Positions 6,761 to 19,908 of a stretch of 41,597 nucleotides of DNA are shown piece by piece. Below the pieces are notes generated by a model. It saw only the letters and a list, made by a program, of their open reading frames with translations. It did no database searches and was not told where the DNA came from. This stretch comes from a virus (Duplodnaviria > Heunggongvirae > Uroviricota > Caudoviricetes): the IMG/VR virus record IMGVR_UViG_640753023_000007. One strand, given 5' to 3'. The stretch's first letter is position 1, and every line of letters begins with the position of its first letter. The position numbers and the translations under genes were made by a program.

Positions 6761-7033
6761 TCATCTCGCCGTCAGTTGTTTTGATTTCCGGTAGCCTGCC
6801 GCGTAAAGAGCTACGTTCGGAAGACAAGTTGAACCTTCATATTTTCTGGTCAACGTTGTCAGAGTTATCACTTCTGCTCTCATTGCTGGTTTGAGCTTGC
6901 ATTGCAAGACCACTCGTGAAGGGGTTGGCCTGTGTAGCTTGTCGGAGCTGATCGCCTCCTGACTTTGCAGATTTGCGCGACGAGCTCTACGGCGAGAAGC
7001 TGCGGTGCCTTTAAATTCTGTTTTTCTGGACAT
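6761..7033 (-). CDS. N: Antitermination protein N (933W/H-19B-like type, not lambda N)
   Basis: Track ORF 6761-7105; start taken at internal Met (MSRKTEFKGTAASRRRARRANLQ, arginine-rich motif) preceded by GGGAGG at 5-nt spacing; C-terminus CLPNVALYAAGYRKSKQLTAR resembles N of 933W-type phages and P22 gp24. Confidence 0.8.
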   Translation of the reverse strand: MSRKTEFKGTAASRRRARRANLQSQEAISSDKLHRPTPSRVVLQCKLKPAMRAEVITLTTLTRKYEGSTCLPNVALYAAGYRKSKQLTAR

Positions 7034-7131: not shown

Positions 7132-7177
7132 TGGCTTTTCAGCCACGTAGTCGAGAGTCGACGTTGTTTAAAGAGCC
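7132..7177 (-). promoter_or_regulatory. nutL candidate (boxA-like GGCTCTTTAAACAACG plus boxB-like hairpin UGGCU-GAAA-AGCCA)
   Basis: On the minus strand, a boxA-like element and a 5-bp stem hairpin with GAAA loop, 16 nt apart, about 100 nt upstream of N; mirrored by a similar pair downstream of cro. Confidence 0.6.
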
Positions 7178-7179
7178 TG

Positions 7180-7300
7180 CCAGTCTGTTCCATTTGGCTT
7201 CCAGCGTCCTGCTGACGGTTAAATAGTACGATATGTACTTTACAAGATCAATACAATTTGTTGTAAGTTGGCGTGGTTTTTTATAACGCTTTGTATTTAA
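7180..7300 (-). promoter_or_regulatory. Probable pL promoter / OL operator region
   Basis: Intergenic region upstream of nutL and N; contains a 17-bp near-palindrome TAGTACGATATGTACTT (7224-7240) related to a motif in the cI-cro intergenic region; promoter hexamers not confidently assigned. Confidence 0.4.
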
Positions 7301-7438
7301 TAGTGTTGTTTTTTAGCGTGGATGTATTGCCTCGGCGATGTAAGGAGAGATCAGAATTGCGTGGTTTAGTGGGTTGCATCTATTTATTTTTCAATAAATA
7401 TAATTGGTTATGTGTTTTTAGGTGGGCGAACGTGAGGC

Positions 7439-7466
7439 AAAGAAAACCCGGCGCTGAGGCCGGGTT
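7439..7466 (-). terminator. Intrinsic terminator ending the cI-orfA-orfB transcript (analogous position to lambda tIMM)
   Basis: Minus-strand hairpin AACCCGGC-(loop)-GCCGGGTT followed by TTTTCTTTG, starting 3 nt after the orfB stop codon. Confidence 0.65.
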
Positions 7467-7469
7467 GTA

Positions 7470-8222
7470 TTATGCTGCAAGTCTCTTAACCCAAGTCTCT
7501 CTTTTGGAGAATGGTAGAACTTGGCTTGATTCATGGAAGAGTAAGGAGAGTTGTTGCATTTGATCACCAATTGCTTCGCTGTCTATAACAACAAATCTGT
7601 TGTTATACTCCTCACTTGAAGCTTTAAGATCAATTAGTTTCCCAAGCAATGAGTAAGCACTATTCCAGCTTCCTCCGTGTTTCACGCTTGATGTAAAAAC
7701 GTATTTAGGTATGTCGGTTTTTATTGTTACAGGGACGGTAATTTGATGTCCACTCAAGCCATATACGTTTTCACGAAGAGAAAGTGCGTCTCTAAGCTCT
7801 GTGTGATATAGATAATCAATAACCATACTTTCAAACTTTTCAGCTTGAACTGGCTGATACCAGTCTAACGACAAAGTTGATGCGAGTATACCAGCTCTAA
7901 TTATGTTCGATGTAATCGCACCGACATCCTTTTCTGTTGCCCAAGCAATGATTTCTCCTCGAGCATTGAGTTCTGCGCCTTCTTTAAGCAGTAATTGTCG
8001 TATCTCATCAAGTCGTTTTTTGGTAAGCGAGATCCCTCTTGCCTCCATATTCATTAAGGCATCGCATCTGTCACTAACTAAATACCTACCATTGACTTCA
8101 CGGATAAAGGCACCGACATGCTCTCCATCATCACAGTAAGTGAATGGACTGATAATTCTCAAGGTCTTGCCTATTGGATGGCATTCGAAACCTAGTTGTG
8201 AGATCACTGTTGAGCACATCAT
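7470..8222 (-). CDS. Hypothetical protein orfB (250 aa), second gene of the cassette in the rexAB position
   Basis: Long ORF with ATG start overlapping the orfA stop (ATGA); no transmembrane segment or catalytic motif recognised by eye; AT-rich relative to flanking genes; followed by a terminator. Confidence 0.65.
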   Translation of the reverse strand: MMCSTVISQLGFECHPIGKTLRIISPFTYCDDGEHVGAFIREVNGRYLVSDRCDALMNMEARGISLTKKRLDEIRQLLLKEGAELNARGEIIAWATEKDVGAITSNIIRAGILASTLSLDWYQPVQAEKFESMVIDYLYHTELRDALSLRENVYGLSGHQITVPVTIKTDIPKYVFTSSVKHGGSWNSAYSLLGKLIDLKASSEEYNNRFVVIDSEAIGDQMQQLSLLFHESSQVLPFSKRETWVKRLAA

Positions 8223-8776
8223 ATTCCAAACCCCATTTGCCCCGACTCATCTTCAAGCGGTAAAGGTATTCTCCCAGAGTAAGTTATGTTCAGATGTTTA
8301 CAGAAGTAATTCCAATACCCTACCAGGTCATCTGGGTTTATGTCATCTTCGATTGGAAACGCTATTCTATCACTATAGTATCCAGCTTCTTCATAGTATA
8401 CATGGTAGTGAGCACCGTAAATGATATCTTGGTACTTCGGATGATCGACCTTGTAACTATTCGTGTGTTTGTCAAAGTGATAGGTATCTACCGCGAAAAC
8501 CCTCTTGTTATGATAGAAAGCAATAATATTTATTTTAGGGTAAGAAATCGGGTCATCAGGTTCTGAATCCTGATCTGGTTTCCATTTCAGTTCAAACTTT
8601 AGCCCTTGTATAGGTATACAATCCTCATCCAAGGGGATGATATGGGCTTGTAGCCACATATCAGAGCGACTTGGTTTCTGTTTCCATTTAACGCCAGAAA
8701 AGTTAACTATTTTTTTACAATAAAGTACTTTATCAACTTCTACTTGGCTTGGCTGATAATCATCTATTTTTGCCAA
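8219..8776 (-). CDS. Hypothetical protein orfA (185 aa), first gene of the cassette directly downstream of cI
   Basis: ORF bounded upstream by an in-frame stop; first possible start is TTG at 8776 (next in-frame ATG is 39 codons in); acidic, Tyr/His/Trp-rich; no motif recognised; AT-rich. Confidence 0.55.
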   Translation of the reverse strand: MAKIDDYQPSQVEVDKVLYCKKIVNFSGVKWKQKPSRSDMWLQAHIIPLDEDCIPIQGLKFELKWKPDQDSEPDDPISYPKINIIAFYHNKRVFAVDTYHFDKHTNSYKVDHPKYQDIIYGAHYHVYYEEAGYYSDRIAFPIEDDINPDDLVGYWNYFCKHLNITYSGRIPLPLEDESGQMGFGI

Positions 8777-8815
8777 TGTTTACCGCCCTGTAAATTGTAG
8801 ATAAAAGTGGTTTCA

Positions 8816-9469
8816 TCACCCAAACGTCTCTTCAGGCCATTGGCTGGCGATAACTTTCCCCACAACGGAACAACTCTCATTGCATGGGATCATTGGGTAT
8901 TGTGGGTTTAGTGGCTGTAGAAACACCTGACCGCTATCCCTGATCAGTTTCTTGAAGGTAAATTCATCACCACCAAGTCTGGCTATGCAGAAATCGCCGG
9001 GCTCAACAGCTTGCTCAGGGTCAACCAGAATTAACATCCCGTCAGGAAAGCTGGGTTTGGAACCTGTTGGTGCGGTCATTGAGTTACCTTCAACCTCAAG
9101 CCAGAATGCAGAGTCACTGGCTTTTTTGGTTGTGCTTACCAATCTCTCCGCATCGCCTTTGGTAAAGGTTCTGAGTTCTGGAGAGAACATCCCAGCCTGA
9201 ACATGAGAAAAAACAGGGTACTCATATTGTTTTTTAACTGGGGCCGATGAGTATTCGCCAACAGGTGAAAATGTCCCGTCGTGGTTGAATGATATGTTAT
9301 CAATACCAAGGTATTTAAACACCACACCAATATCACTAAGAGATGGATGACGAGATCCGCGCAACCAGTGTCCAATCCCACCCTGCGTCATACCTAGCTC
9401 TTCGGCTAACTTCTCTTGAGTTATGCCGAGCTCTTTCATTCTGGATCTAGCCAGTTCATACCATTTCAT
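8816..9469 (-). CDS. cI: CI-type prophage repressor (HTH domain plus LexA/S24-like autocleavage domain)
   Basis: Track ORF 8816-9517; N-terminal HTH ([23 protein letters not shown]) and C-terminal S24-peptidase-like region (WLEVEGNSM ... FKKL); start placed at Met with AAGGA 7 nt upstream (9469); 9475 also possible. Confidence 0.85.
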
Positions 9470-9585
9470 TTTCATGTCCTTATTATTACGCTCTGTACTG
9501 GAACCATCCATGCACAATGTGTATTTTTACTTGTATTCGCAAAGTACATATTGTATTTTTTATTCGTGTTTACTATGGAGGGCAT
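9470..9585. promoter_or_regulatory. Divergent pRM/pR promoter and OR operator region
   Basis: 116-bp AT-rich intergenic region between divergent cI and cro; contains AAGTACATATTGTATTT (9542-9558), matching the reverse complement of the OL-region motif at 14 of 17 positions, plus a 9-bp palindrome CACAATGTG. Confidence 0.5.
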
Positions 9586-9801
9586 ATGAGCAACCTACGA
9601 AAATATCGAGAGTCACTGAATATCTCTCAAACAACACTTGCTAAGGCAGTTGGATGCACACAGGGAGCTATCGGACATTGGGAATCTGGTCGTCGCTTCC
9701 CAGACCTTAAAACATGCCGTGCTCTTGTTGCGTGCCTAAACAAGTTAGGCGCAAAAGTCAGTCTTGATGACGTGTTCCCGCCGGAACACAAAGCCGCTTA
9801 A
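9586..9801 (+). CDS. cro: Cro-like HTH repressor
   Basis: Track ORF 9517-9801; start taken at MSNLRKYRESLNISQTTLAKAVG preceded by GGAGG; HTH motif; divergent from cI. Confidence 0.8.
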   Translation: MSNLRKYRESLNISQTTLAKAVGCTQGAIGHWESGRRFPDLKTCRALVACLNKLGAKVSLDDVFPPEHKAA

Positions 9802-9811
9802 TAAGCGGATC

Positions 9812-9857
9812 CGCTCTTTGTAACAACGGACATTCGTCCTACGTCGCTGAAAAGCGA
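9812..9857 (+). promoter_or_regulatory. nutR candidate (boxA CGCTCTTTGTAACAAC plus boxB hairpin UCGCU-GAAA-AGCGA)
   Basis: boxA-like element and 5-bp stem/GAAA-loop hairpin 16 nt apart, just downstream of cro; stem differs from the nutL boxB by compensatory base changes. Confidence 0.6.
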
Positions 9858-9942
9858 GTTCCAAGATATCTGACCAACTAAGGCCATATGCGTTTCCACG
9901 CATACCTTTCAACTAACTATTCACTATTGGAAATCTTAAGAA

Positions 9943-19663: not shown

Positions 19664-19908
19664 TTGATGATGCCTCTGTGTGAAATGACGGTAAACGACG
19701 CACTTGTGCCGGCACATAATAGCAAGCACCATAATAGATCAGATTCGATTCTTGCTGTAAGTCAGGGAAAATCGTGTCGGTACTTCTCGAATATAACTTT
19801 TTGTTTTTTTTAATATTGCATCCGTAAAGGTCCGACATGAAAGTGTCCGAAAATGCCTTTTTCTGGCGTTTTCATGTCGGGCCTTGTATTTGATAATGGG
19901 TTGTTTTC

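Follow-up and report, generated by a model that had tools for sequence, protein, structure and literature searches.

The window (the whole 41,597-nucleotide stretch of DNA that was analysed) includes the immunity region of a lambdoid prophage of E. coli. The genes and associated elements of this region are arranged as follows.

6761-7033, minus strand: N antiterminator gene, transcribed first from pL (PF25694, E = 1.5e-32)
~7194-7469: T-rich intergenic region
7445-7466, minus strand: intrinsic terminator, which ends the leftward operon of cI and the accessory genes, ahead of OL3
7470-8222 and 8219-8776, minus strand: two accessory genes, a DUF1828/DUF6978 pair
8816-9475, minus strand: cI, 219 amino acids from the ATG at 9475, with an HTH_3 N-terminal and a Peptidase_S24 C-terminal domain
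9586-9801, plus strand: cro, 71 amino acids, HTH_3, with the recognition helix TQGAIGHWESG; cII, O and P follow

The closest whole-region matches are phages ev207, ev017, PhiR57_1 and PhiR63_2, with 100% identity across 2.7 kb (7150-9850). The flanks of the accessory genes share 96.5-98.7% identity with many Stx phages, including 1717, YYZ-2008, PA4/PA5 (Sakai-type PST1), Stx2 II and the Stx1-converting phage. Of 5,426 complete E. coli genomes, 775 (~14%) carry this immunity type.

An earlier note on this DNA had singled out two 17-mers, TAGTACGATATGTACTT at 7224-7240 and AAGTACATATTGTATTT at 9542-9558, as candidate CI/Cro binding sites in the pL and pR/pRM regions. Both are present at these positions and, as the note had counted, they are identical at 14 of 17 positions when one strand is reverse-complemented. 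With up to three mismatches allowed, the right-hand 17-mer finds only two matches in the whole 41.6-kb window, namely itself and its left-hand partner, while 0.05 matches are expected from dinucleotide shuffles and none of 100 shuffles contained two or more. A motif search of both intergenic regions, which the note had suggested as a check, covered every dyad of 3- or 4-mers at gaps from 0 to 12 and found only TAC-N5-GTA and ACA-N3-TGT to be enriched. Three sites could be delimited on each side, which the note had not managed by eye, giving six in total; their coordinates come from mapping the operator annotation of the Stx1-converting phage (GenBank AP005153) onto the window.

OL1, 7224-7240, TAGTACGATATGTACTT: over the pL -10; the same as VT2-SA OL1 and as a putative operator of AP005153
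OL2, 7249-7265, CAATACAATTTGTTGTA: overlaps the pL -35 by 3 bp; 25 bp centre-to-centre from OL1
OL3, 7282-7298, TATAACGCTTTGTATTT: 33 bp from OL2
OR3, 9484-9500, TATTACGCTCTGTACTG: over the pRM -10, with its centre at ~-17 from the putative pRM start
OR2, 9510-9526, ATGCACAATGTGTATTT: abuts the pRM -35, with its centre at ~-43 from the putative pRM start; 26 bp from OR3
OR1, 9542-9558, AAGTACATATTGTATTT: over the pR spacer and -10; 32 bp from OR2

The two enriched dyads jointly cover five of these sites, and their merged core, ACR-N3-YGT, covers all six. This core occurs 33 times in the window; six of the occurrences fall in the two regions (397 bp), where ~0.3 would be expected. The 12 half-sites yield the consensus wARTACR, with A2 present in 11 of 12, T4 in 9, and A5, C6 and R7 in every one, while position 3 is degenerate and of low information. 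The AGTAC/GTACT half-site described in the note does occur, in 4 of the 12 half-sites, but the family as a whole follows the broader consensus. OR1 is the best match to that consensus and, together with OL1, makes up the top two of the six, while OR2 and OR3 are weaker matches with the lowest scores.

In leave-one-out weight-matrix scans, each of the six sites came between rank 1 and rank 7 of 41,581 positions, with the remaining five taking the places above; among positions that took no part in building the matrix, each came first or second. The best non-operator position in the window, at 19792, scores 11.1 bits and lacks ACR, and none reaches the operator scores. A candidate seventh site, 114 bp to the right of OL3 (AAATACAATTGGTTATG in relatives), was rejected, as it has only one good half-site; in the window (7396-7412) it scores 8.4 bits and has lost the invariant C6, and it was therefore not counted.

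The operators overlap or adjoin three putative promoters.

7223-7251, minus strand: putative pL, with -35 TTGATC (7251-7246), a 17-bp spacer and -10 TACTAT (7228-7223)
9482-9510, minus strand: putative pRM, with -35 TGGATG (9510-9505), a 17-bp spacer and -10 AATAAT (9487-9482)
9531-9559, plus strand: putative pR, with -35 TTGTAT (9531-9536), a 17-bp spacer and -10 TATTTT (9554-9559)

A strict sigma-70 consensus scan called none of the three, which are visible only at a relaxed threshold, where the pL hexamers are the top match on the minus strand. These promoter-like hexamers overlapping the operators, all below the strict-scan threshold, are kept across species, in an Enterobacteriaceae genome (L087) and in Erwinia phyllosphaerae (L088). 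The counterparts of pR are TTGCAT-17-TATTAT in Erwinia and TTGCTT-17-TATTGT in L087; the pRM -10 is invariant, and its 6-nt gap to the cI ATG is also kept in both. The annotation of the Stx1-converting phage in GenBank AP005153 gives the same pL elements and agrees on pR and on the pRM -35. An alternative pR, TTTACT-17-TATTGT (8 of 12 matches), was rejected because it is conserved in neither Erwinia nor L087.

Because the cI ATG at 9475 lies 6 nt after the pRM -10, we infer that pRM transcription starts at ~9475, at the A of this ATG, which would make the cI mRNA leaderless as in lambda. The predicted starts of pR and pL are at ~9566 and ~7216. GenBank records place the cI start at the ATG at 9511, within OR2; a start at 9475, or at 9469 (7 nt after AAGGA), is more likely.

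Since both regulatory regions are rich in T (36-41%) and -10 elements are overlapped by OL1 and OR1, the similarity could in principle be a by-product of AT-rich promoter DNA, made of -10- and -35-like words, and not a protein-binding motif. We consider this very improbable: the invariant core ACR-N3-YGT corresponds to no sigma-70 element, matches are rare in the dinucleotide shuffles, and the dyad is enriched in these two regions only.

The pattern of variation among close relatives speaks against a promoter by-product as well. We compared 80 IMG/VR loci with a 100% identical Cro, which gave 38 OR and 33 OL haplotypes, the window included; the OL regions were taken by blastn projection, exact-anchor extraction having lost 50 of 82 loci. 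Substitutions spare the half-sites, where 18% of columns vary, and fall in the three central base pairs (positions 8-10), with 44% of columns variable, and in the spacers, with 48%. The depletion in half-sites gives a Fisher p of 2e-5, or of 3e-7 when the minor allele is required in at least two haplotypes, both values overstating the independence of haplotypes that are related to one another. Within the core A5, C6, G12 and T13, a single column varies (7261, position 13 of OL2), in one haplotype. Positions 7 and 11 toggle only from purine to purine or from pyrimidine to pyrimidine, except that a single OL2 haplotype has T at position 7, and the remaining half-site changes affect the degenerate outer positions. 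The centre-to-centre spacings across the loci are 25 bp for OL1-OL2, 33 bp (range 32-34) for OL2-OL3, 26 bp for OR3-OR2 and 32 bp (range 31-33) for OR2-OR1. The distance between OL and OR ranges from 0.88 to 2.84 kb and is set by the cargo between cI and OL.

More distant relatives connect the sites to the recognition helix. The Cro of L087 is 80% identical to that of the window, with the helix SQGAIGHWECG, and the Erwinia Cro is 76% identical, with the same helix as in the window. The Erwinia CI has the helix TQGAIGHWLNG and a different, non-lambda C-terminal domain. Three OR sites are found in L087 and Erwinia at nearly constant offsets from cro (-104/-78/-44 and -108/-82/-49), and OL sites lie 25-26 bp apart in both; in Erwinia the third OL site, 30 bp away from OL2, is degenerate in its outer half. 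Between the window and Erwinia, the OR half-sites are identical at 34 of 42 positions and the spacers at 25 of 51. The operator set was absent from an Avibacterium relative, whose Cro is 48% identical and has a different helix, SQPRIANYETG. The genomes that keep the sites have in common the CI/Cro helix pattern TQG[GA]IGHW or SQGAIGHW. Retained with this helix and absent with a different one, the motif tracks the recognition helix rather than the surrounding DNA or the C-terminal domain of CI, which again argues against a by-product of promoter sequence.

The same comparison bears on the identity of the bound protein. Our literature search, which did not extend to Fattah 2000, Sato 2003 and Tyler 2004, turned up no assay in which binding by the cognate CI or Cro was measured directly, and the sites might thus be occupied by another regulator, either a host factor or a different phage protein. 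Nevertheless, they accompany this cI-cro pair at all loci studied, whatever cargo lies between cI and OL and whichever type of C-terminal domain CI has, they are absent where the helix differs, and their layout mirrors that of lambda. Binding by a regulator other than CI and Cro therefore seems to us exceedingly improbable, even more so than a promoter by-product.

A less drastic alternative is that only some of the sites are functional, for example OL1, OL2, OR1 and OR3, with OR2, OL3 or both weak or vestigial, or that the true site is the 15-mer A-N-T-A-C-R-N3-Y-G-T-A-N-T, the 17-bp frame having been borrowed from lambda. Positions 1 and 17 of the 17-mer indeed carry little information (0.54 bit), OR2, one of the two lowest-scoring sites along with OR3, drops under 11.5 bits in one group of haplotypes, and in the literature 933W is reported with only two OL sites, compared with three here. 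We nonetheless regard a reduced set or a shorter site as unlikely, since ACR-N3-YGT and a near-constant spacing are present at all six sites across the haplotypes and L087, Erwinia keeps the core and the spacing at the three OR sites and at OL1 and OL2, and OR2 lies where an activator of pRM would sit.

The HTH regions of CI and Cro can be aligned, and their recognition helices are near-identical, which fits competition for one operator set. The C-terminal domain of CI differs from that of lambda CI in one residue, and both its RecA-stimulated cleavage and its surfaces for oligomerisation should accordingly resemble those of lambda CI. The N-terminal domain, on the other hand, is different: it shows only distant similarity to that of lambda, although the lambda repressor N-terminal domain is its closest natural solved relative, and the N-terminal arm of lambda CI is missing. 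The Cro of the window, an HTH_3 protein, is also unlike that of lambda. Lambda CI residues Q33, E34, D38 and Q44 align with Q20, E21, E25 and Q31 here, and S45 aligns with G32. In co-crystal structures of the lambda repressor, Q44 reads A2 and S45 reads the G opposite C4. The half-site wARTACR shares A2, A5 and C6 with the lambda half-site TAyCACCG, and the change of position 4 from C in lambda to T here may parallel the S-to-G change.

The immunity is not that of lambda, as a weight matrix of lambda operators (TATCACCGCCAGTGGTA-type sites) gives the six sites scores from -1.6 to -11.7 bits. The lambda and window matrices do not cross-score, which agrees with how weakly lambda CI binds the VT2-SA sites. 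These sites have been assayed by EMSA with lambda CI only, with an apparent KD of 3.7-6.4 uM, compared with 0.2-0.35 uM for lambda CI on lambda OL1/OR1 (PMC10742460).

Comparison with phages of the same cI allele, also proposed in the note, bore out its two sites and revealed that the whole set is already known: the sites had been predicted, are part of GenBank annotation and have served in published studies. AP005153, whose CI is identical at 219 of 219 residues, has three 'putative operator' 17-mers annotated on each side, both 17-mers of the note among them, with the same operator positions and promoter annotation as in the window. Four of the six 17-mers, again including these two, are identical in VT2-Sakai (Sp5), Stx2 II and the Stx1-converting phage (AP005153/AP005154), while the published VT2-SA OL2 and OL3 are each one base off, at half-site position 3. 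Judged by the identical CI, the four identical operators and the two that differ by one base, the window belongs to the VT2-Sakai/Sp5 immunity type; phages of the VT2-Sakai type carry other cargo between cI and OL, where the window has the DUF1828/DUF6978 pair. The six sequences have been listed as the PST1 operators, 'same as ... Sakai', attributed to Fattah et al. 2000 (PMC4587872 Table S5, where the OL and OR labels are swapped), and AAGTACATATTGTATTT and TAGTACGATATGTACTT have been given as OR1 and OL1 of VT2-SA (PMC10742460 Table S1). A full-text literature search gave no match to the operator 17-mers in main texts. The published operators of the VT2-Sakai type are predictions. With the sites predicted and annotated beforehand, the present analysis matters little as a discovery; it adds a statistical and comparative validation of the six sites, a refined consensus and a promoter map. 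The immunity type is common to the Sakai-type Stx2a prophage, which makes its biochemistry relevant to Stx-phage induction.

The arrangement as a whole is that of a lambdoid operator set, with dyad-symmetric repeats confined to the cI-cro and the cI-side-N intergenic regions, an adjacent HTH_3 and Peptidase_S24 repressor and a divergent Cro with a near-identical recognition helix. The proposal that the two 17-mers are candidate CI/Cro sites of pL and pR/pRM is thus well supported at the sequence level, by a six-site dyad family confined to both regions as well as by the overlap with promoter-like elements, the conservation of half-sites and the recognition helix shared by CI and Cro. With a probability of roughly 0.9, we interpret the two 17-mers as OL1 and OR1 of lambda-style tripartite operators of the VT2-Sakai/Sp5 immunity type, bound by CI and Cro. 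Lambda likewise has three 17-bp dyad sites per side. Its OL1 and OL2 are located at -17 and -41 of pL, compared with ~-16 and -41 here as computed from the coordinates, and its OR2 at -42 of pRM, close to the position found here; an OL-OR separation of 2.3 kb is shared as well.

From the sites, their statistical excess and conservation, their promoter-like overlap and the shared helix, all of which are directly observed, we infer CI and Cro binding, an order of affinities, activation, cooperativity and looping. CI dimers would bind the six sites, and Cro would use the same sites in the lytic pathway through its near-identical helix. CI at OL1 and OL2 would occlude the -10 and -35 of pL, and CI at OR1 the spacer and -10 of pR. 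At OR2, ~-43 from the cI start, CI would sit where it can activate pRM, the source of the leaderless transcript, by way of an acidic patch that lambda CI also has (E21 and E25 here, E34 and D38 in lambda). OR3, lying over the pRM -10, would serve negative autoregulation, and Cro probably binds there first. Because the C-terminal domain of CI is essentially that of lambda, one would expect RecA-stimulated autocleavage, cooperative binding in pairs and looping between OL and OR across 2.3 kb.

The spacing of the sites differs from that in lambda, with 25/33 and 26/32 bp here as opposed to 24/20 and 23/24 bp, despite the lambda-type C-terminal domain of CI. OL1-OL2 and OR2-OR3 are close pairs, while the wide pairs are separated by about three helical turns (32-33 bp). 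Because OR1-OR2 (32 bp) and OL2-OL3 (33 bp) are wider than the 20-24 bp of lambda, lambda-like cooperativity may not extend to these adjacent sites. If lambda-type cooperativity operated only at close spacing, CI might pair OR2 with OR3 instead of OR1 with OR2, an arrangement we hold to be doubtful, if less so than a partly functional set. Such a switch would differ in autoregulation and induction behaviour, in an immunity type that Sakai-type Stx2 phages share and that occurs in ~14% of the complete genomes of E. coli.

933W, whose lambdoid Stx-phage immunity region has the same gene order as the window, is of another immunity type with a different operator sequence, and its repressor has been reported to bind adjacent sites without cooperativity.

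Two overlapping genes lie between cI and the left operators, ending at the minus-strand terminator:
7470-8222, minus strand, first gene of the pair in coordinate order
8219-8776, minus strand, second gene of the pair, overlapping the first
7445-7466, minus strand, terminator at which the pair ends

This slot is filled by rexA and rexB in lambda, whereas the window carries the gene pair there instead. The pair is annotated as DUF1828 and, weakly, DUF6978. Its PADLOC matches are PDC-M24B (E = 4.7e-10) and PDC-M24A (E = 4.8e-4), both of them candidate defence families. It is probably a candidate anti-phage system that is expressed in the lysogen and co-transcribed with cI. Among the IMG/VR loci L003-L082, which encode an identical Cro and share the same operators, the distance between OL and OR ranges from 0.88 kb (without cargo) to 2.84 kb. 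Because this distance varies despite the identical Cro and operators, the cI-OL slot is a cargo hot spot whose genes can be exchanged.

The cI gene itself is annotated in public records with an ATG at 9511, inside OR2. We favour a start at 9475, which corresponds to a leaderless mRNA, or at 9469, on account of promoter geometry and cross-species conservation. The C-terminal domain of the window CI (8816-9200) equals that of lambda CI (L083, 2231-2600) except for one residue, a lambda W replaced by L, and is joined to an unrelated N-terminal domain. A CI homologue from Erwinia shares the N-terminal helix of the window CI but carries a different C-terminal domain. The window CI is a mosaic protein, and CI domains have therefore been shuffled between immunity types. 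For Cro, the solved structure PDB 28tn (a "lambda repressor-like protein" of 82 aa) aligned over its full length with the window protein (E = 4.5e-17) and could serve as a structural template, although its recognition helix, TAGAICHYENG, differs from that of the window Cro.

Besides the six predicted CI/Cro operators, one further operator-like site was found:
7396-7412, seventh site, 114 bp to the right of OL3; also at 1747-1763 of comparison locus L001 and in many other loci

In many relatives this site reads AAATACAATTGGTTATG and scores 13.2 bits with the operator weight matrix, making it a half-good operator-like sequence. The window copy has undergone a C-to-T change, with loss of the invariant half-site position C6 and a score down to 8.4 bits. 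The site may be due to chance.

When the published PST1/Sakai operators were placed on the genome, the labels in Table S5 of PMC4587872 proved to be swapped relative to genome positions: the table uses OR for the sites adjoining N, and OL for the ones in the cI-cro interval.

Finally, nutL- and nutR-like elements were seen by eye, the former on the minus strand at about 7132-7179 and the latter on the plus strand at about 9812-9857, with the boxA-like sequences GCTCTTTAA and CGCTCTTTG, respectively. Inspection by eye also suggested boxB-like hairpins, TGGCTGAAAAGCCA at 7132-7145 (minus-strand sense) and TCGCTGAAAAGCGA at about 9845-9858.
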